Positions 28,387 through 43,717 are shown, counted from the stretch's first letter. The stretch is 64,000 nucleotides of DNA from a virus (IMGVR_UViG_3300020576_004053:32001-96000), one strand, 5' to 3'. Numbers and translations are program-made. Notes: generated by a model not told the origin, from the sequence alone.

Positions 28387-31300
28387 TTACAAATTGCTAA
28401 TATAGAATCCAAATGGACCAAATGCGATGTAATTGGCGATAACCTGTTTCATATCCGTGAATCCACCCGATACTTGTAATTTTGAGGAGGGATCATTAAT
28501 GGATACGCGACCCTGAATAGTCAATTGACCACCAGTAAACTGCATATAAGTAGATACCGATGATGTAGTTGCTGTACCGACACGGAAATTACCCAATCCA
28601 TCTGCATAGAAGCCCATACCGTTAGCTATACTATTTGCATTACCAAGTGCCAACAAACCATTTTGTGCAGAATCTAATACGATATTTCCACCGAATAGAC
28701 GGAATACATTGGCACGAATATTTAGGGTCTGCCCACCGAATGATAGGAAATTACCGGTCTGATTTTGTGGGGTCGTATAATCAACATTACTTCCGCTACC
28801 GATGAAGATCTGACCTGCATAATTTGCGTAGAATCCTTCCACTTGTGTAGACGGATTAAACGCCAACGGTGCAGGTTTACCAATGGCAATGAACGAGGTA
28901 TTGACTAAGAGTTGTTGTCCAGATACTGATGATGATAGATAGAAATCGCGAGATTTTACTATAAATGCACCACCGACCGTATATTGCAAGAAATCCGATC
29001 CAGTAGCATCCGTACCTACTCGGAAATTACCACCACCATCAGCATAAAATCCTTGCTTATTATTAAGTGTAATTAGTGAAGGATTATCACCTATTTTAAT
29101 CGCGTTTGCCACACCAGCAGATCCAGACACACCAATGATCTGCATACCACCAGCAAGCAAACTCATACGAGACGTACGAATATCCAATCCAACCGTTGGT
29201 GAATATCGTACATAGTCGTTCAATGACGACGTAGTAGCACCCACACGGAAATTTCCACCACCATCTACGTAGAATCCGGTACCAGATACAAATGATATGA
29301 TGCCGGGATTTGTACCTAATCTAATAACGTTTGTTGTTGCAGACGTAGGATCAGAAATTAATACCAGTCCACTAGAAGATACGATCATGCGCACCGTCTG
29401 CATTTGCAATCCTACAGACGGTGAATAACGGATGTAATCGCTGGCACTACCCGTTGTTGCCCCGACTCTGAACTGACCGGCACCGTCAGCATAGAATCCA
29501 TCGCCATTGGCCAATGTTATATTGGCAGGAGTTGCACCTAATTTAAGGACGTTCGCAGAAGCTACAGATGGATCTGATATCAGATTCAATCCACCGGCAA
29601 TGATACTTATACGCGTTGTATATACGTCCAATCCGACCGATGGAGAGTACCGTAAATAATCCACCGTACTACCAGTATTTGCACCCACTCGGAAATTACC
29701 AGCACCATCCACATATAGTCCAGTACCAGACGCAAACGACATGGTAGCAGGAGACGTACCAACCTTGATGTAGTTATTAACCGGAGTAGCATTTTCAGAT
29801 ACAATCTGCATGCCACTAGCAGTAATAAACACTCGGGTCGTACGAATATCCAATCCACCAGACACCGGAATGAATCGAATGAAATCTTGTACAGATCCAG
29901 ACGTATATCCGGCTCTCCAATTACCATCCCCATCCGCATAGAATCCGGTACCAGAGGTTAACGTCATCGTGCTTACGGATGGACCGACCTTGATCACATT
30001 CGCCACACCAACATTTTGATCGGATGTCAACTGAATACCACCAGCGACAATATTCATTCGTTTCGTTTGAATATCTAGACCAACGGACGGCAGGAATCTT
30101 ACATAATCCTGTGTACTCTGAGACGAGAATCCAACACGGAAATTACCATCACCATCCGCATAGAGTCCGGTTCCAGACAATAATGTGATAGTAGATTGAT
30201 TGTTTCCAATTTTCAATACGTTTGCAGCCGAATTGAGATTATCCGATGTTAATCGCAACGAACCTGCGACGACATTCAATCTCTGTGTCTGTACATCAAG
30301 TCCACCGCTGTTTGGAATATAACGAATATAATCTTGGGTTGTACCCGACGTATATCCTACACGGAAATTACCATCCCCATCCGCATAGAACCCTGTACCG
30401 GATAGTAGTGTAATGTTAAGTGGTGTTTGACCCAATTTAATGACGTTTGCAACAGCAATTGATGGATCTGAATTGATATACAGTCCACCCGCCAAAATAG
30501 TGGCACGAGTGGTCTGGATGGCCAATCCAGCAGCAGGAGAGTATCGTAGATAATCTGACATAGATGCGGTTTCAGCACCCACTCGGAAATTACCAGCCCC
30601 ATCCATGTACACGCCGGTACCAGATACGAACGACATGGTTGCAGGAGACGTACCTACCTTGATGAAGTTTAATACAGCAGCACCGGGATTAGATGAGATG
30701 TGCATACCACTTGCAGTGATATTGATTCGATTTGCTTGAATATCAAGTCCACCGGAGGATGGAATGAATCGAATATAATCCTGAAGTGTTCCCGACGTAT
30801 AACCTGCACGGAAATTGCCATCACCATCAGCATAAAAACCGGTACCAGAGATCAATGTCATGGTCGACGGAGTGGTACCAATTTTGATGACGTTTGCTGC
30901 ACCGAAGGTGCCAGACACACCGATGATTTGCATACCACCAGCTAGCAAACTCATACGAGTAGTATAGATATCTAATCCAACAGACGGTGAATATCTCAGA
31001 TAATCTACGAAACTACCAGTATTTGCACCCACTCGGAAATTACCAGCACCATCCATGTAAACACCTGTACCAGATGCGAACGACATGGTCGCTGGTGAGG
31101 TACCGATCTTAATGAAGTTCAGTACCGGTGCACCGGGGTTGGACGAGATATGCATACCGCTTGCCGTAATATTGATACGGTTTGCTTGAATATCCAATCC
31201 ACCCGACGCGGGTATGAAACGAATAAAGTCTTGTAGTGTTCCGGATGTATATCCTGCACGGAAATTGCCATTACCATCAGCATAAAAACCGGTGCCGGAT

Positions 31301-34300
31301 AGAATGGTCATGGTAGAAGGTGTCGTACCAATCTTGATGACGTTAGCGGCACCAAACGTACCAGATACACCAATAATCTGCATACCACCAGCCAAAAGAC
31401 CGATACGAGTGGTAACAATATCTAAACCAATTGCAGGAGAATATCGAATGAAATCGGATACTGAACCGGTGGTTGCGCCAACGCGTATTTGACCAGCACC
31501 ATCAGCATAGAAACCGGTACCAGACACGAATGAGATATTTCCGGGAGAGGTTCCTATTTTTACAAAGTTGTTAGTCAATACTGCCGTATCAGATGCAATA
31601 TGCAATCCGCTAGCAGAAATATTCACCCGCGATGTTTGTAGATCCAGTCCACCAGATGCTGGAATAAAGCGCAGATAATCTTGAGTTGACGCAGAGGTGT
31701 AACCGACGCGGAAGTTACCGGCACCATCAGCATAGAAACCGGTACCAGATAGCAACGTCATTGTGGTTGGTGTAGTACCTACCTTGATGACGTTTGCTAC
31801 TCCCACCGATGGATCGGACAACAACTGCATACCACCAGCGATAATATTCATACGAGTCGTATAAACATCCAACCCAACTGATGGAGAGTATCGTAAGTAA
31901 TCGGACGTACTACCCGTGTTTGCACCCACTCGGAAATTACCAGCACCATCCATGTAAACACCTGTACCAGATGCGAACGACATGGTCGCTGGTGAGGTAC
32001 CGATCTTAATGAAGTTCAGTACCGGTGCACCGGGGTTGGACGAGATATGCATACCACTTGCAGTGATATTGATTCGATTTGCTTGAATATCAAGTCCACC
32101 AGACGCCGGTATGAAACGAATGAAATCTTGAATCGTTCCAGAGGTATATCCCATTCTGATATTACCACCACCATCAGCATAGAAACCAGTACCAGATATC
32201 AACGTCATGGTGGACGGTGTAGTACCGATCTTAATGGTATTTGCAATCCCAGTAGAACCAGACACACCGATAATAGAGATACCACCAGCCAATAAATTGA
32301 TGCTAGACGCAATAACTTCCAATCCACTTGTTTTGCTGTATCGAATATAATCTGCGCCACTACCGGTTGAGGCATTACCTACGCGGAAATTACTATCTCC
32401 GTCCATATACACACCAGCACCACTGGTTAATGTAATGGCCGTTGGGTTTGAACCGATCTTGATAACATTCGCAGATGGTGTAGTTGGATCAGATAGCAAC
32501 TGCATACCACCCGCAGTAATATTCATGCGAGATGTTATGATATCCGTTCCATTAGACGGGCTAAATCTGAAATAATCTGTAGTTGTTCCAACTCGGAAAT
32601 TACCGTCACCATCTACATAAAATCCAGTATTTGCAGCAAATGTAATGGCAGTTGGAGAATTACCAACTTTGATTGTATTAGCAGACGCTATAGATGGATC
32701 GGACAACAACTGCATACCACCAGCCGTAATATTCATACGCTTCGTAAGAATATCCAAACCAACCGATGGTGAATATCGTACATAATCAGACAATGACGCA
32801 GTATTTTCACCGACACGGAAGTTACCAGCCCCATCCATGTACACACCGGTACCAGATACGAACGAAATTAAACTCGGAGATCCACCAACTTTGATGTAGT
32901 TATTAGCCGCAACGGTTCCTTCTGATACGATATTCATACCAGAAGCCGTAATAAACACTCGGGTCGTCTGAATATCAAGTCCACCAGACGCCGGTATGAA
33001 ACGAATGAAATCTTGAATCGTTCCAGAGGTATATCCCACACGGAAGTTACCCGCGCCATCGGCATAAAATCCTGTTCCGGAAATCAATGTCATGGTGGAC
33101 GGTGTGGTGCCTATCTTGATGAAATTACCAACACCTACCGTACCAGATACACCAGATAGTTGAATTCCACCGGCTATTAATGCAATACGAGACGTTTGTA
33201 GATCTAACCCAGTAGACGGACCATATCGTAAGAAATCTACACCACTCCCAGTTGTTGCTTGACCAACTCGTAGATTTCCACCACCATCTACATAGAATCC
33301 AGCACCATTTGTAAATGAAATGGCGGTAGGATTTGGACCAACTTTAATGGCGTTAGAAGTACCAATAGTGGTATCGGACAACAACTGCATACCACCAGCC
33401 GTAATATTCATACGCTTCGTAAGAATATCCAAACCGACCGAAGGTGAATATCTCAGATAGTCAGATAGCGATGCGGTTTCAGATCCAACGCGGAAATTAC
33501 CAGCACCATCAGCATAGAAACCGGTACCAGACACGAATGACATAGTCGCTGGTGACGTACCGATCTTAATGAAATTACTTGCAGGTACCGTACCTTCGGA
33601 CGCGATGTGCATACCGCTAGCAGTGATATTAATACGTGTTGTTTGAATATCCAATCCACCAGACATCGGAATGAATCGTAGATAATCTCGCAACAACGTT
33701 GACCCCGATGTATATCCCACACGGAAATTGCCATCCCCATCCGCATAAAACCCTGTTCCTGATATTAACGTTGAATTTGCAGCATTTGTGCCCAATTTAA
33801 TAACATTTAACGATCCAGACGCCGGATGTCCCAAGAGATACATCCCACCAACGTCCATGTTAAATTGGTATGAGGCAATACGTACCTGAGACGGTGACAC
33901 ATAGATATATGATCCAGATGGTGTACCGGCTCTGAATGTACCTCCACCATTCATGTACACACCAGATCCCGATGTTTCACTTAATACACCACCTAACATC
34001 ATGACGTTATTAGCGGCTGATGACGTAGCCGCTAATAGGAATCCAGATGCTGAAAGATATAATAGCTTAGAACGAACAACAAATGCGCCATTCGCCAATC
34101 CAACCATTTCAGAATATGGATCGTTTACATTTCCTGTATATGATGCAGAATTTGCAATTCGGAATTGACCGACCGCATTAATAAGCACCGGCCAATCATT
34201 CTGTGCCTTATTGTAAAAACCCATTGACGACGTTTCTAAATACAATCCGTTAATGAGTTTTGACGCATCTGCTACTTGTGGTCGCTGAATACGATTAAAT

Positions 34301-37300
34301 GCATCAAGAATAGATGCAGTTGTAATAGCTAATGCCGATGAGCCAGAGATGGACTGAATCTGTGCAGCAAGAGACGCAGAATACGCTGCTGCCTGTTGTG
34401 CTAATGAAGCAGAATTAGAAATATCAATAATTGCCAACGATGCAGACGCAGAAAACAGATTGGTCGTTGACTGTGCTAATGAAGCTGATGTTGCTACTGC
34501 AAATGCGGCTAGTGATGCAGAACCGGCTGATGCTTGTTGTGACAACGACGCGGAATAGCTTAGATCTTGGGCAACTAAGGATGCCGATGCGATAGAAATG
34601 CGAGACGCCAATGAAGCAGAATTGGAGATATCAATTGCCGCCAATGATGCTGATGCAGCAAACAAATTAGTCGTAGACTGTGCTAATGACGAAGATGTAG
34701 CTATCGCAAATGCCGCCAACGATGCAGAACCAGCAGATGCTTGTTGAGACAATGAGGCAGAATAGCTCAAATCCTGAGCAACTAAGGATGCCGACGCAAC
34801 AGAAATACGCTGTGCCAATGAAGCCGACGTAGATACATCATATAATGCCAATGAGGCAGAATATAGACTTGCTTGCTGTGACAATGATGCCGAATTCGAA
34901 ATATCAATTGCAGCCAAGGACGCAGATGCAGTGAATAAATTCGTCGTTGACTGTGCCAACGATGCCGATGTAGACACAGCAAATGCCGCAAGAGACGCCG
35001 ATCCTACTGATGCCTGTTGTGATAGTGATGCAGAATAGCTTATATCCTGCGCAATTAATGATGCGGATACCGCAGAAATGCGTGCAGCAAGAGACGATGT
35101 AATAGAGATCGCATATGCTGCTAGCGATGCTGAATTCAACGATGCTTGCTGTGCCAACGATGCAGAATTAGAAATATCGATAATTGCTAGCGATGCAGAT
35201 GCGGCATAGAAATTGTTCGTTGTTTGTGCAAGCGATGCAGAGGTAGATACCGCTAGAGCCGCTAATGATGCTGAAGTCAGTGCCGCTTGTTGTGCTAAGG
35301 ACGAAGAATAACTTACGTCTTGAGCAACCAATGATGCCGATGCTAGCGAAATACGCTGTGCTAATGATGCCGATGTAGCAATATCATACGCCGCCAACGA
35401 GGCAGAGTATGCTGATGCCTGTTGTGATAACGACGCAGAATTAGAAACTGCATCGGCAATAATAGAGGCCGACGCAATAAACAATATATATTGCTGATAT
35501 GCTAAGGATGCGGAATACGCTACTGCCTGAGCCGCTAATGACGCCGAATAAACTGACGCCTGTTGTGCAGCCGATGCAGATACCGCAACGTCGGCAATTA
35601 CCAACGATGCCGATGTTGCCGCGATGGTTTGAGACAATGACGCAGTTATAGATACTGCATATGCCGCTAATGACGCCGAATTTAACGACGCTTGCTGTGC
35701 TAACGAGGCAGATAACGATGCAGTATTAAATGCTTGAACACTACTTGATACCAATATCAGTTGTTGTGCCAATGATGCCGATGTCGCAACTGCATGTGCC
35801 GCCAATGATGCTGAATAAATTGACGCCTGTTGTGCTAGTGATGCGGAATATGATACCTGCTGCGCCAATAATATTGACGCAGAATAGTTCAAATTGAATG
35901 ATGAGCTAACCAATGCCGCCGTTGCGGTTTCAATAGAATATGCTTGATCGAATCCAGAGCCAGAGATAAGATCCAGCACATTAAACCACGTGCTACCTCC
36001 CCCCACTTGTACAGCGAAGGTTCCACTTACCACCACATCAAAGTTAGATCCAGAATAGCTACCAACCAGTTTATCACCAAGTGAAAAAATGCTACCTGAT
36101 GCGTCGGTATTTCCCAAATAGAATGGAGTATCGATGTTACCGGGATTGCCGCCGCCCGCATAAATAGCACCACCAGACGTTGGACTATTAGATGTAATAG
36201 TTAACCCAGATCCACTTGCTCCAACAGTCAGCGTTCCATCAATACGACTATCACCGCCCTTCAAAATCGTATTACCACCATCTATATACAATGGCGCACT
36301 TTCAATAGTAACGGGTACCATATTACTATTGACATCGAACAACTCAGCCTTAAACACCACTCGTTCGAATCGTCGTCCGGTTATTGGAGTAATGATTCGA
36401 ATTTCGTCTGGATTAAACCCCGTTTCTCGCGCAGATTTGAGCGTGATATCGGAAATATACCAATCACCACTATATACGACGAAATACAACTTAGCGGTGC
36501 CATCGCGTATGCCGACTACATTTTTGGTCGAATCTAAGAAGAATTGTTGTGTTTTACCAGCCGGGATAACATATGACGCAATTTTAGTACCTAATGGATT
36601 TTGCGATGCTGATGGAAACGCAGTACCAAATACATACACATCCATCCGAGCTTCAACCGTCGAATCCTGTTTAGTACCGTATAAAGATGCGCCAAATGTA
36701 TATTCCAATCCCTTGAAAAATGATAACTCTGGGATACTGCCAATATATGCCTGTGCAACCGATGATGCTGACGCAAATGCACCGGTCGGTTGACTGATAT
36801 ACATTGAGTCCAGTAACACATCGGCGTTATAGCTAGCCGTGACACCAGTTGTAAGACCATATTGCACCCCACCAGTAACAGTACCAGCCGTCCAGTATGA
36901 ATCGATGACAGATTGACTAGTAATCAATCCCATTCGAATCGACTGATCCCCTGTGACGGAGGATTGCGTCATCAATAAATCCGTCTCTTCTAATGAAACA
37001 TCGGTTAGAAGCTGATAATTTCCCGGCTGATCGACGCTGCGTATATACAGTTTGGCCCGTGCAATATCACCGGAAAACGTCTGTAATTTTGCAATATGCA
37101 CATTTGCAAAGGATCGGACTAAATTCGTTGAAATAAATGATGGGCTTGCCAAATACCGAACTGTATAGGATGGCAGCGTCACGTTCGCCAAATATCCACC
37201 CGTACTTGCGGTAGGGATTGTATTGAGCGTGATAGTGGACGTATTGATAACATCGGTAATGGATGCCGTGAATGGAGCGCCATTTAGTGTGGTCATAAAC

Positions 37301-37908
37301 GGCGCGTCGACCATATCACGATTGAAGGACGCACCGGACAATACCACGGTGGCGCTTCGACCAATTAACGTTGCCGTACCGCTCGTCTGATCAACGATGC
37401 TACCAGTTACCGCATCTCGGTAAGGTGCCAATAGCTCAACGGGAGTAATTACCGGTTGCGCATATAACCGTATAGGCGTCGTGTTAGCCTTATACGGATT
37501 AATTTGGATTTTGGTAGACCATTTTACGTTATATGCACCCTTAAACTCTTTGGGTGGCACATTGCCCTGTTCATCAGTTTTAAGCTGACCTAAAATGGTT
37601 ACGGTTGCCAGCCCCGGTGCGGTATCCTTATATACTTCAATTGACACCAGCCGAGCCAATCCTTCCGTGTAATTACGAATAGGTTGACTAAATACTACAT
37701 TACCAGCGGAATCTACGATTTCAACGAGTACATCGGTATCTGCTACCAACTCGGTTGAACCGTTTATAAGGAACGCATTTTTACCACTCGTCAATACGTC
37801 GGGGACTTGTGACAGTCGAAAGTATCGCGAGGTAGGGGCCGTATCTACTATCCAAACTCTATATTTTTCTAAATTTAGCGGAAATACTGATTTCTGTAGC
37901 TTTGGCAT
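28387..37908 (-). CDS. Giant tail fibre/baseplate appendage protein (3173 aa)
   Basis: N-terminal globular beta region, 11-residue SASLA repeat stalk, about 25 repeats of ~74 aa (GFYADGxGNFRVG). Confidence 0.8.
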   Translation of the reverse strand: MPKLQKSVFPLNLEKYRVWIVDTAPTSRYFRLSQVPDVLTSGKNAFLINGSTELVADTDVLVEIVDSAGNVVFSQPIRNYTEGLARLVSIEVYKDTAPGLATVTILGQLKTDEQGNVPPKEFKGAYNVKWSTKIQINPYKANTTPIRLYAQPVITPVELLAPYRDAVTGSIVDQTSGTATLIGRSATVVLSGASFNRDMVDAPFMTTLNGAPFTASITDVINTSTITLNTIPTASTGGYLANVTLPSYTVRYLASPSFISTNLVRSFANVHIAKLQTFSGDIARAKLYIRSVDQPGNYQLLTDVSLEETDLLMTQSSVTGDQSIRMGLITSQSVIDSYWTAGTVTGGVQYGLTTGVTASYNADVLLDSMYISQPTGAFASASSVAQAYIGSIPELSFFKGLEYTFGASLYGTKQDSTVEARMDVYVFGTAFPSASQNPLGTKIASYVIPAGKTQQFFLDSTKNVVGIRDGTAKLYFVVYSGDWYISDITLKSARETGFNPDEIRIITPITGRRFERVVFKAELFDVNSNMVPVTIESAPLYIDGGNTILKGGDSRIDGTLTVGASGSGLTITSNSPTSGGAIYAGGGNPGNIDTPFYLGNTDASGSIFSLGDKLVGSYSGSNFDVVVSGTFAVQVGGGSTWFNVLDLISGSGFDQAYSIETATAALVSSSFNLNYSASILLAQQVSYSASLAQQASIYSASLAAHAVATSASLAQQLILVSSSVQAFNTASLSASLAQQASLNSASLAAYAVSITASLSQTIAATSASLVIADVAVSASAAQQASVYSASLAAQAVAYSASLAYQQYILFIASASIIADAVSNSASLSQQASAYSASLAAYDIATSASLAQRISLASASLVAQDVSYSSSLAQQAALTSASLAALAVSTSASLAQTTNNFYAASASLAIIDISNSASLAQQASLNSASLAAYAISITSSLAARISAVSASLIAQDISYSASLSQQASVGSASLAAFAVSTSASLAQSTTNLFTASASLAAIDISNSASLSQQASLYSASLALYDVSTSASLAQRISVASASLVAQDLSYSASLSQQASAGSASLAAFAIATSSSLAQSTTNLFAASASLAAIDISNSASLASRISIASASLVAQDLSYSASLSQQASAGSASLAAFAVATSASLAQSTTNLFSASASLAIIDISNSASLAQQAAAYSASLAAQIQSISGSSALAITTASILDAFNRIQRPQVADASKLINGLYLETSSMGFYNKAQNDWPVLINAVGQFRIANSASYTGNVNDPYSEMVGLANGAFVVRSKLLYLSASGFLLAATSSAANNVMMLGGVLSETSGSGVYMNGGGTFRAGTPSGSYIYVSPSQVRIASYQFNMDVGGMYLLGHPASGSLNVIKLGTNAANSTLISGTGFYADGDGNFRVGYTSGSTLLRDYLRFIPMSGGLDIQTTRINITASGMHIASEGTVPASNFIKIGTSPATMSFVSGTGFYADGAGNFRVGSETASLSDYLRYSPSVGLDILTKRMNITAGGMQLLSDTTIGTSNAIKVGPNPTAISFTNGAGFYVDGGGNLRVGQATTGSGVDFLRYGPSTGLDLQTSRIALIAGGIQLSGVSGTVGVGNFIKIGTTPSTMTLISGTGFYADGAGNFRVGYTSGTIQDFIRFIPASGGLDIQTTRVFITASGMNIVSEGTVAANNYIKVGGSPSLISFVSGTGVYMDGAGNFRVGENTASLSDYVRYSPSVGLDILTKRMNITAGGMQLLSDPSIASANTIKVGNSPTAITFAANTGFYVDGDGNFRVGTTTDYFRFSPSNGTDIITSRMNITAGGMQLLSDPTTPSANVIKIGSNPTAITLTSGAGVYMDGDSNFRVGNASTGSGADYIRYSKTSGLEVIASSINLLAGGISIIGVSGSTGIANTIKIGTTPSTMTLISGTGFYADGGGNIRMGYTSGTIQDFIRFIPASGGLDIQANRINITASGMHISSNPGAPVLNFIKIGTSPATMSFASGTGVYMDGAGNFRVGANTGSTSDYLRYSPSVGLDVYTTRMNIIAGGMQLLSDPSVGVANVIKVGTTPTTMTLLSGTGFYADGAGNFRVGYTSASTQDYLRFIPASGGLDLQTSRVNISASGLHIASDTAVLTNNFVKIGTSPGNISFVSGTGFYADGAGQIRVGATTGSVSDFIRYSPAIGLDIVTTRIGLLAGGMQIIGVSGTFGAANVIKIGTTPSTMTILSGTGFYADGNGNFRAGYTSGTLQDFIRFIPASGGLDIQANRINITASGMHISSNPGAPVLNFIKIGTSPATMSFASGTGVYMDGAGNFRVGANTGSFVDYLRYSPSVGLDIYTTRMSLLAGGMQIIGVSGTFGAANVIKIGTTPSTMTLISGTGFYADGDGNFRAGYTSGTLQDYIRFIPSSGGLDIQANRINITASGMHISSNPGAAVLNFIKVGTSPATMSFVSGTGVYMDGAGNFRVGAETASMSDYLRYSPAAGLAIQTTRATILAGGLYINSDPSIAVANVIKLGQTPLNITLLSGTGFYADGDGNFRVGYTSGTTQDYIRYIPNSGGLDVQTQRLNVVAGSLRLTSDNLNSAANVLKIGNNQSTITLLSGTGLYADGDGNFRVGFSSQSTQDYVRFLPSVGLDIQTKRMNIVAGGIQLTSDQNVGVANVIKVGPSVSTMTLTSGTGFYADGDGNWRAGYTSGSVQDFIRFIPVSGGLDIRTTRVFITASGMQIVSENATPVNNYIKVGTSPATMSFASGTGLYVDGAGNFRVGANTGSTVDYLRYSPSVGLDVYTTRISIIAGGLNLISDPSVASANVLKLGATPANITLANGDGFYADGAGQFRVGATTGSASDYIRYSPSVGLQMQTVRMIVSSSGLVLISDPTSATTNVIRLGTNPGIISFVSGTGFYVDGGGNFRVGATTSSLNDYVRYSPTVGLDIRTSRMSLLAGGMQIIGVSGSAGVANAIKIGDNPSLITLNNKQGFYADGGGNFRVGTDATGSDFLQYTVGGAFIVKSRDFYLSSSVSGQQLLVNTSFIAIGKPAPLAFNPSTQVEGFYANYAGQIFIGSGSNVDYTTPQNQTGNFLSFGGQTLNIRANVFRLFGGNIVLDSAQNGLLALGNANSIANGMGFYADGLGNFRVGTATTSSVSTYMQFTGGQLTIQGRVSINDPSSKLQVSGGFTDMKQVIANYIAFGPFGFYISNL
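31022..31158. repeat. 137-nt exact direct repeat, copy 1 (copy 2 at 31919-32055) inside giant fibre gene
   Basis: Base-by-base identity, offset 897 nt (in frame). Confidence 0.85.
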
Positions 37909-37989: not shown

Positions 37990-40698
37990 CTAATCTACAT
38001 AAATAGTACTATATCTATCGTCTCGTTTGATCTCTAGAATCGAATCCGTCACATCTCGTAGGCTGTCTAAGTGACTAATAATCAACAGGAAATCAAATTG
38101 AGTTTTGAGGAAGGAAAACAGCATATGCAACGAACTGCGGTTGTCGGTATCCAGCGCACCAAATCCCTCGTCAATGATAAGGAAATTGCTCTTAGGTAAT
38201 AGTGACACCCGCATAAGTGCCACACGAATGGCCAAACTGCTAATGAATTTTTCCATCCCAGATGCCAATTCCAACGGCCATACTTGATCTTCTGCATATA
38301 CAATTCGACCGTTGATATTTTTACCATCCACATCCAATAGAACGGCAAAGTCAACCAATTGTGAGAGGATATTATTCACATCAGTTTCCAACACCGGTAC
38401 CACCTCAGCCACCAACTGGTATGGTATTCCGTCTCGACATACCGCCGCCAAATACAATTCGTAGGCCATATGTTCAAATGCCAGCAATTTGGCCTTATTG
38501 ATCTTTTCCAGAATCGTATGTCGTTTGGACTCTAATACCGCCAACGATGACGTTTTAGACACCAACAGTGCATTGAGTGATGAATTTTCTGCACTATATT
38601 TAGACCGCAGCGTTTTTATCTCAACAATTTGATCCCCTATCCGTGCGTTAGTGAGAATGTCTGCCTCTTGCGTATGCTGCGTTGCAATATCGGCATCGAT
38701 GCTCACAATAGTATCGGCACAGCGTTCAATCTTTCGCTGCATGTCCAATACGTCATTTTTCATTACCTGAATCGCCTGTTCGGCATCTCGTACCACTTTG
38801 AGCTTTGTCGTTTCCGATTCTGCGATTTTCGTCTTTAATTTCTCCACCGCAAGAACTTGTTGAGATAACAATGTACGTGTATCAGTTAACATGGTCTGCT
38901 GTGCGGGTACATCCTTCAATGATTCTACCACCGCTTCCGCCTCAGCACATTCCGCGATAGCAGCTTGTAATTTATCCGTGACCTCTGGTAATCGTTCTTT
39001 CGACGCCATGGCTTTCTTTACAAACTCGTTATTACAACAGTACTTACAATTCGGATCATATTCATGCTTATCCAATACCTTGATCGTATCGGTGATGATC
39101 CGTAACTGTTCCGTAAGCGTTTTAACGGTATGTGCTAATTCCGTATGTGCTTTAATTGCATCAGTTCGAAGTGCACCACGTTGAGTAATGGCATCTTCAT
39201 TCGCTTCTATCCAGTCTTCATTCTTCTGAACTGCAGCAACGCCACGCTCCAACCGCTCCTTGGATAACGTAATAGCATCATCAAGATCAATAAGTTGCTG
39301 ACCAACTTGCGGACCCTTATCAATGAGTTGCTGTTTGGCGACAATGTCGGCTTGTAGCTTCTTAATAGCCTGTTTTTGTGCGTCTCGCTGTGCTTCTAGC
39401 TGCGGGATAGAATATGCACTAACCGTGATAGGAATTTTCTGCTCATACAACACCTGTAATTCGTCATTCAATCGATCATATTCAGATGTATTTAATGTCA
39501 CTTGGGCAGTCGTCTCAGCAATACATTGAGAGGTTTCATCCAGCTTTGCCTGAAGCTCTACCAATTCGTCGGTGAAATCTTCATTCTTGAATTGCTTTAA
39601 GGATGCCATTACTTCCTTAGATGCATCTTTAGCGGCATCATGAAGTCGATCAAAAATTTGCAACCCCATAAACTGACTGAGCACATCCTTTCGATCTGAC
39701 TGTCCACGGTCAATGAACAAGCTATTTTTGTCTTGTACTGAGAATGCAGTCAATAAGAAATCGTCAAAATCTCCCACATATTGACGGATATACTCGTTGG
39801 TAACACGACGTTCTTCACCGTTTAAACTGGTTTTGACACCCTTATCAGTTGACCAAAAGTCCACATCGATCTTGACCTCACCCTTCTTATTTCGTTTACC
39901 GGTGCGCTGTACGGTATATTCCACATCCCCAATCATGAATACGAACTCGCAGAAACATGAATCCTTTCTGGTATTCATGATATTCACGGCACGAATCGTC
40001 CGAGGGGTTTTGTCATAGAGCGCAAAACAAATAGCGTCTGGGATGCTACTTTTTCCTGATGCGTTGGGAGCAAACAATCCCACCGATCCTTGAAGCGTAT
40101 CGAAATTAATCCAATTCCCCTCACCATAGGTAAACAGATTATCAAACTTCAACGTCTTGGGAATCCAGACGATACGTTTAGCGGCGTCGTCTAGAGGTAG
40201 CGTCGAATTGATCTCTTTATTGATTTCCACCACTTTATCAATAAGATCTTGTTGAATATCAGGTTTTGCATTTTTGACATAATCTACTAATAGTTTATTT
40301 TGATAATTGACATCATTGACATCTAACAAATCAGATGTGTGGACATTTGCATTATTGAATCGTGAATTGAGCGGTCGAGTAATTGAACATTCAATGATAT
40401 TATGCTTTGCCTTTAACGTCGCCACATACTGCTTAATTTCACTTTCGTCCAAACCGCCAGTAAATAAACGAAGACGCACATTTCGTGGAAGGTTTGACGT
40501 ATCTGGGATTTCTTTCCCTGATATTTTGATGGTATAAAGACCATAATCATTCTCCAATTCATGAAATTTAAACGACCGTGATGCGACATCCCATTCACAA
40601 TATCCATGGCCTTTAACATTCTCACCATGATTTTGTTGGATAAGGGAACCGGCGTAAACTACGATAGGTTTTATGCGTTTAATGCGAATCTTTCCCAT
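37990..40698 (-). CDS. C-terminal part of split SbcD-SbcC (gp47-gp46, Mre11-Rad50) fusion: end of nuclease domain plus SMC-type ATPase
   Basis: YAGSLIQQNHGE; Walker A APNASGKSS; Zn-hook CKYC; signature ASGMEK; Walker B LIIDEGFGALD; ISH; own RBS (AGGGA). Confidence 0.9.
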   Translation of the reverse strand: MGKIRIKRIKPIVVYAGSLIQQNHGENVKGHGYCEWDVASRSFKFHELENDYGLYTIKISGKEIPDTSNLPRNVRLRLFTGGLDESEIKQYVATLKAKHNIIECSITRPLNSRFNNANVHTSDLLDVNDVNYQNKLLVDYVKNAKPDIQQDLIDKVVEINKEINSTLPLDDAAKRIVWIPKTLKFDNLFTYGEGNWINFDTLQGSVGLFAPNASGKSSIPDAICFALYDKTPRTIRAVNIMNTRKDSCFCEFVFMIGDVEYTVQRTGKRNKKGEVKIDVDFWSTDKGVKTSLNGEERRVTNEYIRQYVGDFDDFLLTAFSVQDKNSLFIDRGQSDRKDVLSQFMGLQIFDRLHDAAKDASKEVMASLKQFKNEDFTDELVELQAKLDETSQCIAETTAQVTLNTSEYDRLNDELQVLYEQKIPITVSAYSIPQLEAQRDAQKQAIKKLQADIVAKQQLIDKGPQVGQQLIDLDDAITLSKERLERGVAAVQKNEDWIEANEDAITQRGALRTDAIKAHTELAHTVKTLTEQLRIITDTIKVLDKHEYDPNCKYCCNNEFVKKAMASKERLPEVTDKLQAAIAECAEAEAVVESLKDVPAQQTMLTDTRTLLSQQVLAVEKLKTKIAESETTKLKVVRDAEQAIQVMKNDVLDMQRKIERCADTIVSIDADIATQHTQEADILTNARIGDQIVEIKTLRSKYSAENSSLNALLVSKTSSLAVLESKRHTILEKINKAKLLAFEHMAYELYLAAVCRDGIPYQLVAEVVPVLETDVNNILSQLVDFAVLLDVDGKNINGRIVYAEDQVWPLELASGMEKFISSLAIRVALMRVSLLPKSNFLIIDEGFGALDTDNRSSLHMLFSFLKTQFDFLLIISHLDSLRDVTDSILEIKRDDRYSTIYVD

Positions 40699-41507
40699 TT
40701 GTCCCTATTCTTCATAAAGTTAACACGAGGTACGTGATTATTAATACTACAATAATTTACAAGAGATTCTGTTTTGGCTAGCATTTCCTGCTCGTCTGCT
40801 ACCCACCCCTTTACCTCTTCTAAAATTGTGTTCGTGGTAGTGATAATATAAAAATCTGGTACATATCTACGGGTTTTAGAATTTAACTCGTATGGTATTA
40901 CGATACCATGTTTTTTAGTCCACGTCAATACAGTATCATCAGCGTCTAATTGTTGCATACGTTCCAACTCAAAAGACGACTGATAAAACTCATCGACAGA
41001 AGATTTGTTAGAGGTGTATTTACCTCTAATATAATTTCTATACCCACCACCAAATTCTGAACTTTGTGCTCGTAATGCGCTAGATATCGAAGATTTTTCT
41101 ATAGATTGAGGTGAATTTATAGGATAGAATCCGTGTATATCTTTATACTTTTCTCTCGCAGCTATATGCTTCTTCATTCTATCAGGATTTTCCCACGATT
41201 TTTTCACGGCAATCTTTTTCTTTCTGCATATATCTGTCGATTGAGATTTCCCTAATAATACATGGTTACCATAATTTGGATTACCATCTCCTTTAAACTT
41301 GGCAGCAAAATGTTTTTTGGCACATTCATATGAACAACATATTCTTGGTCGAGACGCACATTGCTCTATTTCAGATGAACATACTACACATAATGTTATA
41401 GTTCTTTTCCGTTGACCTAATGTAGAACACGTACGAGAACAATACTTTGACGCCATTCGGTATGTATTATACTCCAACGTACACACATTGCAAATTTTTT
41501 TAAGCAT
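40671..41507 (-). mobile_element. Homing endonuclease gene (Cys Zn-finger repeats plus TnsA-like PD-(D/E)XK nuclease) inserted in the SbcD-SbcC gene; start refined to MLKKIC
   Basis: CxxC..YCSRTC repeats, SSFEL, RRYVPDFYI..EEVKG; AT-rich; GGAGA RBS and TATGTATA box upstream. Confidence 0.82.
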
Positions 41508-41533
41508 ATGATCTCCATAAAGATACTTATGCT

Positions 41534-41541
41534 TATACATA
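41534..41541 (-). promoter_or_regulatory. Putative late promoter TATGTATA of the inserted endonuclease gene
   Basis: GTGATATGTATA between SbcD-N stop and endonuclease RBS. Confidence 0.6.
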
Positions 41542-41554
41542 TCACCCAAGCACA

Positions 41555-42247
41555 CTATTTCACTCGCCACCCATCGGTTTCATACTTATGAAGATCGCTT
41601 TCATCGATTTCTAATTCTTCCGTAGAATACGACTGTAAAGTAGACATTTTGTGAATGTCCCCAAGCATGACCATATCGAACCCATCGAACATGGACAGTT
41701 CATGGTGCCGACTGGTAATCGTAAATCCGGCATCGGTTGTTGCCGAATAAATGGGACCATGGAACAGGGCCAGTTTTGGACTGCGAGTACAATCATCTGC
41801 AGACGGCCAATGTTGCTCACCATCAAGCAATGAATACACCGCTACATCCATCTGCCCAATCTGGTAGACGCCACTATCTTTCAAATAATGCAACCGTGGC
41901 AATTCTAATGCTTCGATGATCGGTGTTAACGCATCCAATCGACTAGCATTCTTTTCTAGAAAATCATGGTTACCGGCGATTACAAAGGTGTGGGCACGCT
42001 CTGACAATTTAAGAAACAGCGATGACACCAACCGAATCATTTCGGGTGATACATCTGTCTTAGTGTGAACAATATCACCTGCCACAATGATAATATCATC
42101 ATCCGTTAAATGCGCCAACTCGGCATACAACCGTTCAAATTGTGCCGCATATTCCTCTTGGCGTCGAAACAGACGAATGTGAATATCGGCTAAATGAAAG
42201 ATACGACGAATATTCGTATCTTCTAAAAAAACTTTTTGTACATTCAT
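41555..42247 (-). CDS. N-terminal part of split SbcD/Mre11-like metallophosphoesterase
   Basis: Motifs HLADIH, AGDIVH, AGNHD, LFHG, LGDIH. Confidence 0.92.
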   Translation of the reverse strand: MNVQKVFLEDTNIRRIFHLADIHIRLFRRQEEYAAQFERLYAELAHLTDDDIIIVAGDIVHTKTDVSPEMIRLVSSLFLKLSERAHTFVIAGNHDFLEKNASRLDALTPIIEALELPRLHYLKDSGVYQIGQMDVAVYSLLDGEQHWPSADDCTRSPKLALFHGPIYSATTDAGFTITSRHHELSMFDGFDMVMLGDIHKMSTLQSYSTEELEIDESDLHKYETDGWRVK

Positions 42248-43146
42248 ATAGTTTGTAATTTCAATGTTAAGGCATCTGAATATGATAGCGCCGATGCAGA
42301 TTGAACCAATTCTCGCATATGAGCAAATCCAATCTCTGACGGATCATGGCCATCTAATTTTACGTGAAATACTGGTATAGATTGTTTCAGCAGTTTCAAT
42401 GCAATATTAGCAGTCTTTCGTAAGGCATCGTCATCTAACGCGATGTAAACGGGTACTTGCTCTGCCAACAATCTATTATACAGTGCCGGTGACACAATAC
42501 TGCCAATGAGGGGAATAGCATTCCATCTCGTAGCAATTGCATCAAAAAACCCTTCAACGAGTATGACGGGATGGTTCCAGTTAATGAACAGTTCAAACCC
42601 AATGATATTTTTAGACGCTTCTGGATTTAGGTATTTAAGCCACGAACTATCCGTGTAATCTCGACCGGTAAAATAATTCAGCACACCCGCTGCATCGTAG
42701 CTAGGGAGAATGATCCGATTGGCAAATTGACCCGCTGCACAATATCCAATATTGTATCTCACCATGTCGCCTTCGGTGATTCCACGATTTAATGCATATC
42801 GTTTCGCACGTCGCCCCATCAGGGATGATGCGGACCATAATGGTTGCCATTCATCTGGTAATACCACTGGAGGAGCTATCTCAATGGTAGGAGATAGCTC
42901 AGCCGGTTTAATCAATGCACGAACCTCTTGATGCAGCGACTGTGGGACATTCAGTCGTCGTAACAAGGACATAATACTACGACCGGCTACCCCACATACC
43001 CAACAGTGCCATTGGCCGGTATGCACATTCACGGCCAATTTGGGTTTGTAATGGTGACAGAATTTACAGGTGTAGTAGTATTCTGAAGATCGGGTTCGTT
43101 TATGTGGTCCTAAAACGGAATCCAAAATGTAAACAAGATCGGTCAT
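42244..43146 (-). CDS. DNA primase (Zn finger plus TOPRIM)
   Basis: CKFCHH..KL...WHCWVC, RGI, KYLN, LVEGFFDA, ALDDDA, DPSE. Confidence 0.9.
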   Translation of the reverse strand: MTDLVYILDSVLGPHKRTRSSEYYYTCKFCHHYKPKLAVNVHTGQWHCWVCGVAGRSIMSLLRRLNVPQSLHQEVRALIKPAELSPTIEIAPPVVLPDEWQPLWSASSLMGRRAKRYALNRGITEGDMVRYNIGYCAAGQFANRIILPSYDAAGVLNYFTGRDYTDSSWLKYLNPEASKNIIGFELFINWNHPVILVEGFFDAIATRWNAIPLIGSIVSPALYNRLLAEQVPVYIALDDDALRKTANIALKLLKQSIPVFHVKLDGHDPSEIGFAHMRELVQSASALSYSDALTLKLQTI

Positions 43147-43174: not shown

Positions 43175-43672
43175 CTACCGCAATCCTCTCGCCAATCGAA
43201 CGCTGACATCCTGCTTCAGGTGCGGAGGTAACTTATCCAACCACGCCAACAACTCCACGAAATCGGATTCAATCAACGATCCCTTAATAGTGTTGGCAAA
43301 TTTTGAAATGACTTGTAAATTTTGTCGAGTCGATGGACCACCCTTTGAAATTGGATGGATGTGATCAAATACCATTGAATCCACCGTCAAGGTACGGCCC
43401 GTATATTTACATGCCGTGCCGTAGGCAGCATATGCCATTTCACGCAATTCTTCAACCGTAATGGTGCAGGGGACTCCCTGTTTTTTTGAGCGAGCTTCCA
43501 TTGTGGTTCGAATGGATGTGAGACGACGCATAATTCGTCCTGCTCGCATAGCTGCGGTGCGTTTGTGATATGGCATCATCTTTACTTCAAATTTCTTATG
43601 CCATACCGATGGTTCTCGACGTTTTACCGTCTTAGCACTTTTTTTAACGGCTCTTTTTCTACGCTTTCTCAT
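43175..43672 (-). CDS. HNH endonuclease; start refined to MRKRRK
   Basis: CKYTG...DHIHPISKGG....NLQ.IS..AN..KG. Confidence 0.85.
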   Translation of the reverse strand: MRKRRKRAVKKSAKTVKRREPSVWHKKFEVKMMPYHKRTAAMRAGRIMRRLTSIRTTMEARSKKQGVPCTITVEELREMAYAAYGTACKYTGRTLTVDSMVFDHIHPISKGGPSTRQNLQVISKFANTIKGSLIESDFVELLAWLDKLPPHLKQDVSVRLARGLR

Positions 43673-43689
43673 ATAATTTCCATTGAACA

Positions 43690-43717
43690 CAAAAACCGCC
43701 ACTAAAGACGGTTTTTG
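43690..43717 (-). terminator. Rho-independent terminator ending the baseplate transcript
   Basis: CAAAAACCG...CGGTTTTTG inverted repeat with A/T tails. Confidence 0.7.

Follow-up and report, generated by a model that had tools for sequence, protein, structure and literature searches.

Phage genes that are cut in two by mobile endonuclease genes have been described in several forms. In phage Aeh1, insertion of mobE split nrdA, and the tails that the NrdA fragments acquired from the insertion are oppositely charged and essential for activity (Crona et al., 2011; PMC3045599). The same authors proposed such tails as a possibly general antidote to gene fragmentation, and noted tail-like charged extensions in the T4 topoisomerase subunits gp39/gp60 (PMC3045599). 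The so-called fractured genes combine a split intein and an endonuclease that is free-standing (Dassa et al., 2009; PMC2677866). Here, we analyze an interrupted Mre11-Rad50 nuclease gene at positions 37,990–42,247 of a 64,000-nucleotide (nt) stretch of viral DNA (IMGVR_UViG_3300020576_004053:32001-96000; hereafter, the window), which is part of a 143-kilobase (kb) IMG/VR phage contig estimated to be about 79% complete. The break in the gene is flanked by an acidic C-terminal peptide (the tail) and a basic N-terminal peptide (the head). Taken as a whole, the best explanation, which we consider probable, is a two-piece enzyme whose halves would be joined by a tail–head clasp, the clasp being a module of an allele type. 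The principle has already been published for Aeh1 NrdA, and the present locus is a second, much more widespread case; our full-text literature search found no report of a split phage Mre11-Rad50. A preliminary description of the stretch, made from the sequence alone, had cited Aeh1 as a precedent: its reading, reassembly from two polypeptides, is supported here, but it left unmentioned the element-derived assembly tails shown experimentally in that system.

On the minus strand, the genes follow from 43146 to 37990 in the order primase, N-terminal half of the nuclease (N-half), 47-nt spacer, endonuclease open reading frame (ORF), and C-terminal half (C-half). The features are:

41555–42247, minus strand: N-half of the Mre11/SbcD nuclease domain, 230 amino acids (aa) and a TAG stop (Pfam Metallophos, E = 8.6e-15; PHROG 100)
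41558–41623, minus strand: tail, N-half residues 209–230 (TEELEIDESDLHKYETDGWRVK), delimited by comparison of linkers, consensus and charge
41508–41554, minus strand: non-coding spacer of 47 nt from the N-half stop to the endonuclease start, with GGAGAT 3 nt before the ATG
40671–41507, minus strand: free-standing endonuclease gene, 278 aa (PHROG endonuclease families; TnsA-like PD-(D/E)XK)
37990–40698, minus strand: C-half, 902 aa, starting MGKIRIKRIKPIVVYAGS after AGGGA
40669–40698, minus strand: head, C-half residues 1–10 (MGKIRIKRIK), the second part of the module
40174–40698, minus strand: rest of the Mre11 domain (PIVVYAGSLIQQNHGE strand, motif VI region), capping domain and linker helices, C-half residues 1–175, from the alignment
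37990–40173, minus strand: Rad50/SbcC ATPase with coiled coil and CxxC hook (CKYC), on the same polypeptide as the C-terminal part of Mre11 (Pfam AAA_23, SMC_N; PHROG 77)
42244–43146, minus strand: DnaG-type primase gene (Pfam DNAG_N and Zn_ribbon_DnaG; PHROG 47, E = 3.8e-37)

The N-half ends in ...LGDIHKMSTLQSYSTEELEIDESDLHKYETDGWRVK-TAG and contains phosphoesterase motifs I–V (ADIH at residues 20–23, GDIVH at 57–61, GNHD at 92–95, H163, and GDIH at 196–199), in which D21, H23, D58, H61, N93, H94, H163, D197, and H199 are invariant across 44 homologues. The C-half opens with MGKIRIKRIKPIVVYAGSLIQQNHGE, followed by a capping-like region and a complete Rad50/SbcC ATPase (AAA_23, E = 2.5e-12; SMC_N, E = 7e-12; PHROG 77, E = 6.4e-51). 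The YAGSLIQQNHGE region sits in the C-half, and thus the Mre11 motifs, I–V and then the motif VI strand, are shared out between two ORFs. The Rad50 motifs GLFAPNASGKSS, CKYC, and LIIDEGFGALD are legible, and the protein has the N-lobe with Walker A, the coiled coil with the CxxC hook, and the C-lobe with the signature and Walker B. Since the C-half runs on into the Rad50/SbcC ATPase, the interrupted gene is a single-chain Mre11-Rad50 (SbcD-SbcC) fusion, which the preliminary description did not state. A free-standing endonuclease gene divides it into two halves that can each be translated independently. The break point lies between motif V (GDIH) and YAGS. The last 28 nt of the endonuclease ORF are shared with the beginning of the C-half, and the three ORFs occupy three different frames (offsets 740 and 1549 nt). 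The position of the break, the acidic tail, the basic head with its own start signal, the three frames, and the approximately 47 nt of non-coding DNA had all been pointed out in the preliminary description, and all agree with the anatomy found here. The primase stop overlaps the N-half start by 4 nt, suggesting a translationally coupled operon. Between the three ORFs, no terminator was found on the coding strand, and a promoter and terminator scan gave no enrichment over shuffled sequence.

The locus was compared with the best 80 of at least 586 IMG/VR relatives and with the best 150 cluster representatives of 3168 matches in a library of 1.8 billion proteins. In 72 of the 80 IMG/VR loci the gene is one ORF of about 1050 aa, or such an ORF cut by the contig end, and a single gene of about 1050 aa is also found in most of the 150 representatives. 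Thus, Microcystis phage Mel-JY01 (L002) has one 1066-aa gene after the primase, labeled in GenBank only as 'AAA domain containing protein'; in this phage, in L003, and in most of L006–L084, Mre11 and Rad50 are fused in one polypeptide of about 1050–1200 aa. The spacing from GDIH to Y-x-G-S in intact genes is 10–21 residues, and 18 in the closest relatives. One of these, P0005, is 61% identical to the window gene in the N-half, and its hairpin at the site is GDIHSPQTLQLYDAANVKPIVTYCGS. Compared with the 18-aa hairpin, the N-half of the window gene is longer by about 21 residues at its end (…EELEIDESDLHKYETDGWRVK) and the C-half by about 8 at its start (MGKIRIKR…), and all catalytic motifs are kept across the two halves. 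As the closest intact genes have neither tail nor head, the peptides do not pre-exist in them as a loop, an origin that had been raised for the uninterrupted homologues; the same oppositely charged extensions are, however, found fused in five intact genes described below.

About 20 other alleles are split at the same point and have the same kind of tail. These are eight IMG/VR or GenBank loci (L001, L005, L024, L057, L067, L076, L078, L079) and 12 library representatives (P0011, P0013, P0016, P0035, P0059, P0089, P0102, P0108, P0109, P0116, P0129, P0138). The tail consensus is x-E-x-x-x-[IV]-x-E-x-x-[LV]-x-x-Y-x-x-x-G-W-x-[ILV] (in short, E..V.E..L..Y...GW.I), with G conserved in 18 of 19 alleles, W in 17/19, Y in 16/19, and each of the two E positions in 14/19. 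Wherever the downstream gene was seen, the head follows the consensus [KR]-[IVY]-[KR]-[IVL]-K-[RK]…[KW]-P (KxRxKR..KP). Of 19 split alleles, 16 have a 21-residue tail core that is net acidic, and every one of the nine heads tabulated is net basic; in the window, the tail core has a charge of −6 and the head of +5. This charge pattern across relatives is more than chance. Conservation extends beyond charge to L/V at −8, Y at −5, G-W at the anchor, and I/V/L at +2, and alleles that share the motif are only 36–54% identical in the N-half.

No genuine split at this site without the module was found among the alleles compared. L093 had been considered as a split without it, and was rejected: it has an in-frame TAG inside a linker of normal length (…GDIHLQQTLK-TAG-IIMISYSGS). 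The TAG, in L093:3001-6261 on a 235-kb metagenome contig, probably reflects stop-codon recoding or reassignment in that large phage, or else a nonsense allele. The preliminary description had suggested looking for the peptide pair at other split genes. In the phage's own genome and in all fetched loci, all C-terminal matches to the tail motif (16/16) turned out to be Mre11 N-halves. Sequence comparison thus indicates that the peptides are a conserved two-part module, peculiar neither to this phage nor to this endonuclease.

The DNA between the halves is variable. Endonucleases of the PD-(D/E)XK family occupy it in the window, L001, and L087, and a LAGLIDADG endonuclease does so in L096 (5150–5854; Pfam LAGLIDADG_3, E = 3.7e-11); hence at least two unrelated endonuclease families use this site. 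In L024 (5638–6597), L076 (5668–6603), L057, and L067, the cargo is an ORF of 312–320 aa, for which no Pfam or PHROG family was matched. In the ESM Atlas it falls among viral hypothetical proteins, one neighboring cluster having Glyco_transf_9 on 45% of its members, a weak lead toward a glycosyltransferase-9-like function. L005, L085, and L097 have no ORF between the halves, only spacers of 69, 173, and 16 nt, respectively, and L089 and L091, again without cargo, have overlapping stop and start codons. Given this variety, conservation of the tail cannot be a side effect of the expression signals of one endonuclease.

Five intact genes of 1085–1100 aa (P0030, P0037, P0084, P0086, P0091) have the tail linked to the head through a loop that is short and variable. 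The AlphaFold2 model built for P0030:1-406 has a mean predicted local distance difference test score (pLDDT) of 92.5, and its top Foldseek matches are 3tho_B (E = 1.3e-14), 4hd0, 6s6v, and 1ii7, with probability 1.00; the Mre11 nuclease and capping fold is recognized here on the intact relative, not on the window's own protein. The insert of P0030 is predicted to form a strand (199–206), a helix (207–215), a short strand (219–221), a loop (222–229), and a strand (230–237) leading into the native strand 239–242, with block pLDDT values of 82–95 over residues 201–240. The breaks of the split alleles map to the loop of this predicted mini-domain.

In a maximum-likelihood tree of 68 genes, built with the linker and insert columns left out, the split alleles are scattered, with at least eight changes forced by well-supported branches. 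The window gene is sister to the intact, short-linker P0005 (support 100), and L005 to the intact L007 (support 100). Holding seven split genes together, with full-length rows only, costs 844.6 log-likelihood units (approximately unbiased test, p = 2.65e-9). The identity of P0005 to the window gene is the highest on both sides of the break. The scatter suggests that the module and the break have been repeatedly gained, lost, or exchanged while the flanks remained unmoved, a pattern that homing or recombination between allele types would produce. The fused P0091 is sister to the split P0016/L089, and the tail and head of L089 together are exactly as long as the P0091 insert; hence no more than a small indel may separate the two states.

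We modeled the complex of the N-half with residues 1–175 of the C-half, using our own alignment for each, in three runs and three controls. The interface score ipSAE was 0.92 in all three runs and at best 0.00 in the controls; 58 of 80 solved complexes attained this mark, as did 2 of 110 mismatched pairs. Between runs, at least 87% of contacts agree, with a partner pLDDT of at least 74. The predicted interface includes tail residues 205–217, 219, 222, and 225–230 and head residues 1–20; from the tail helix only L219 and Y222, both at conserved positions, touch the partner. The contacts 203/14 and 204/13 would place the peptides in an antiparallel ribbon, with L212 and I214 facing I4 and I6, and E211, E213, and D215 facing K7, R5, and K3. 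The model, a check of the kind suggested in the preliminary description, supports binding of the halves.

These observations can be combined as follows. From a single operon, the phage would translate its Mre11-Rad50 nuclease as two separate polypeptides, with motifs I–V on the N-half (230 aa) and the last core strands, the capping domain, and Rad50 on the C-half (902 aa). The halves would re-form the Mre11 fold non-covalently, the break lying in the hairpin that connects motif V to the YAGS strand. The tail, as strand, helix, and short strand, and the head, as a strand, would extend the native hairpin into an inter-chain strand-helix-strand/strand clasp, with L212, I214, L219, Y222, and W227 against I4 and I6 on a hydrophobic face and acid–base pairs on the other. 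The module would be a property not of this phage lineage but of an allele type that recombines, and the gap between its parts may serve as a safe landing place for selfish or accessory genes, the occupant here being a putative PD-(D/E)XK homing-type endonuclease. That the gene works as two polypeptides without splicing is very likely, and is the best-supported reading after comparison and modeling, as the preliminary description had proposed; that tail and head form an intermolecular clasp contributing to assembly is, as judged from the models, probable. Of the mini docking domain proposed there, the pairing of the peptides is consistent with the fused relatives, the predicted interface, and the approximately 20 alleles, but charge is not the whole story and the strongest contacts lie elsewhere.

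Several points weigh against the clasp. The most confident predicted contacts are in the core sheet (N-half 191–195 with C-half 11–15, 203–204 with 13–14, and 15–18 with 33–36), so that the peptides may add to assembly rather than create it, and the core interface alone might be enough. Solved Mre11 structures are single-chain, and the complex score may therefore reflect likeness to known folds, that is, the model's memory of single-chain Mre11, the alignments being our own. The direct pairing of tail and head strands, and its register, are deduced from the modeled contacts nearby. In Aeh1 NrdA, the two fragments bind each other without the tails (PMC3045599). Tail and head are both basic in L097, where there is no charge complementarity. 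In the L024 group, the ratio of nonsynonymous to synonymous substitution rates (dN/dS) is 0.06–0.34 in the tail and 0.04–0.10 in the core, rough values because dS is saturated, and the tail is thus less constrained. More generally, the evidence consists throughout of sequence comparison and models, and the contig is incomplete.

The core contacts, tail-independent binding in Aeh1, the two- to fourfold faster evolution of the tail, and the exception of L097 would all be accommodated if the two polypeptides were real but tail and head were a dispensable scar of past insertions, with the core Mre11 interface doing all the assembly. We consider such a scar unlikely for the following reasons. Firstly, the motif is kept among alleles as divergent as those above, with or without an endonuclease, and the dN/dS of the tail is below 1. 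Secondly, the conserved positions are the predicted contact residues. Thirdly, splits at the site come with the module, the sole candidate for a bare split being the in-frame TAG of L093.

Alternatively, the module could be an ordinary inserted mini-domain with its own job, e.g., contact with DNA or a partner, the loop of which tolerates breaks, so that docking would be a by-product. It is indeed fused and confidently folded in the five intact genes, and split and fused sisters with junction peptides of the same length are seen on the tree. On the other hand, the alleles that bear it are mostly split (about 20 versus five fused), all splits at the site carry it, and its presence varies between sister genes that, in their flanks, are otherwise closest relatives. 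An independent mini-domain of this kind thus seems improbable.

Restoration of one continuous protein by RNA splicing, split-intein trans-splicing, or ribosomal bypass or frameshifting is very improbable. In phage genes for replication and repair, introns that carry an endonuclease are common, and so are split inteins (PMC2677866), and the halves of L005 are in the same frame, 69 nt apart. However, the halves of the window gene are in different frames, only the 47-nt spacer is non-coding, and gaps of 800–900 nt hold complete genes. A group I or group II intron was rejected, as Rfam cmscan of 40300–42000 at E values up to 1 gave no family match; the absence of group I signs, noted earlier by eye, was confirmed. 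A split intein was rejected as well: neither half has a Pfam intein match or a Hint domain, at about 22 aa and about 9 aa, tail and head fall far short of the length of one, and both are kept in mature fused proteins. Real inteins are detected elsewhere in the family, though below the Pfam cut-off: P0035, P0102, and P0129 (N-halves of 545–559 aa) and P0029 (1372 aa) have an insert of about 310 aa near motif III that matches Pfam Intein_splicing and LAGLIDADG_3, the Intein_splicing scores being those below the cut-off. P0035 and P0102 carry both the intein-like insert and the tail-type split. Finally, a decaying pseudogene whose function is supplied from elsewhere is hardly credible, since, even with room for a second copy in the missing part of the contig, none was found in the 143 kb (an intact one had been named as grounds for abandoning the two-piece reading), no catalytic or ATPase motif is damaged, the two ORFs are complete and each has a start signal of its own, and purifying selection maintains this split state across many lineages.

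The endonuclease in the window starts with MLKKICNVC after GGAGAT, a start backed by the alignment to its L001 homologue. As read from the sequence, its N-terminal two thirds comprise Cys-rich zinc-ribbon-like repeats and a NUMOD3-like GDGNPNYG motif (the Pfam NUMOD3 match on the L087 endonuclease is weak), and the C-terminal third is a TnsA-like PD-(D/E)XK nuclease domain (…RRYVPDF…LEEVKGW). Pfam Tn7_TnsA-like_N scores 23.7 bits in the window, below the cut-off of 26.5, and 27.2 bits, above it, in the L001 homologue; the PDF…EEVKG (PD…E-x-K) residues are conserved in the alignment. Thus, the protein has the intact catalytic residues and DNA-binding modules of a free-standing homing endonuclease. 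A search of solved structures with it gave no match. A homologue, 30% identical, sits at exactly the same site in L001 (LR756508, an uncultured 484-kb phage), and a third in L087, whereas the sister genes are without it, a sporadic presence at one host-gene site. The GC content of the ORF is 0.33–0.37, compared with 0.42–0.46 in the flanks. The enzyme is presumably active and mobile. A hairpin at 41505–41537 (minus strand) can pair the GGAGAU ribosome-binding site with the AUG of the endonuclease, which recalls the translational repression described for mobE; the 101-nt region at the endonuclease start folds no better than shuffled sequences (z = −0.24), and RNA structure at the C-half start is likewise no better than in shuffles (z = +0.32).

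A similarly low GC content, about 0.35, is seen at 40100–40550, in the capping and linker region of the C-half. A co-conversion tract as its cause is not visible in windowed protein identity, because the intact P0005 stays the closest relative on either side of the break. Directly upstream of the primase, at 43175–43702 (minus strand), there is an HNH endonuclease ORF (Pfam HNH; PHROG 1035, 'endonuclease VII', E = 3.8e-16), a second putative selfish nuclease of this replication module; no endonuclease copies beyond those already known were found in the 143-kb contig. The order of primase and then nuclease is also seen in L001 and Mel-JY01. The nuclease gene is directly followed by a repeat-rich ORF of 3173 aa, fibre-like by eye (28387–37908, minus strand), and in L005 a large ORF likewise lies behind the nuclease gene. 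The region had no megablast match among GenBank phages.

For annotation, a short N-half and an 'AAA domain protein' C-half of this kind belong together as one Mre11-Rad50 enzyme. The locus illustrates how a selfish gene can take up residence within a catalytic domain without splicing, and makes it testable whether peptides of this kind do drive assembly; tail and head may also offer a small natural docking pair for split-protein engineering. A bolder possibility, which we advance only tentatively, is that tail and head are a portable protein splint that travels with the break from one phage Mre11-Rad50 allele to another. If so, any gene, be it an accessory gene or one from three endonuclease families, could sit inside an essential coding sequence at no cost, and the splint would be a non-splicing functional counterpart of the split intein that might transfer as a natural split-protein tag.

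Among known systems, T4 gp47/gp46 and bacterial SbcD/SbcC have the same catalytic motifs, fold, and ATPase partner. Unlike these, the group studied here normally forms a single chain of about 1050 aa, and the window gene has been re-split elsewhere, inside the nuclease domain. With the T4 topoisomerase gp39/gp60 (mobA; gene 60 bypass), the locus shares a break in a phage enzyme gene at the site of a mobile endonuclease; in contrast, no sign of translational bypass was seen here, and the conserved tail and head motif is not described there. As in the fractured genes, a phage replication or repair gene is halved around an endonuclease gene, some loci have lost the endonuclease, and association of the parts is thought to be charge-driven. 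The differences are that here there is no Hint or intein domain but peptides of about 22 and 9 aa, the halves would not be ligated, and fused alleles retain the peptides.

The closest parallel is Aeh1 NrdA. In both cases, the gene for an essential enzyme is interrupted by a free-standing homing endonuclease gene, close to the active site and between two neighboring beta-strands; the downstream half begins within the endonuclease ORF, each half is translated on its own, with neither RNA nor protein splicing on the reading preferred here, and the terminal extensions are opposite in charge and absent from intact homologues. On the other hand, the gene is Mre11-Rad50 rather than NrdA, the endonuclease is PD-(D/E)XK rather than HNH, and the charge polarity is reversed, with an acidic tail and a basic head. 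The Aeh1 tails are unique to one phage and dimerise heterodimers, whereas here the motif occurs in about 20 split alleles with cargo of three unrelated types or with none; it is also fused in intact genes and is predicted, from sequence and models, to form one small folded unit across the break. This is a second gene family with an Aeh1-like solution, here as a conserved recurring module. The novelty lies in the gene, in the endonuclease family, and most of all in the population picture, in which one candidate clasp module is found in many lineages, with changing cargo and fused derivatives.

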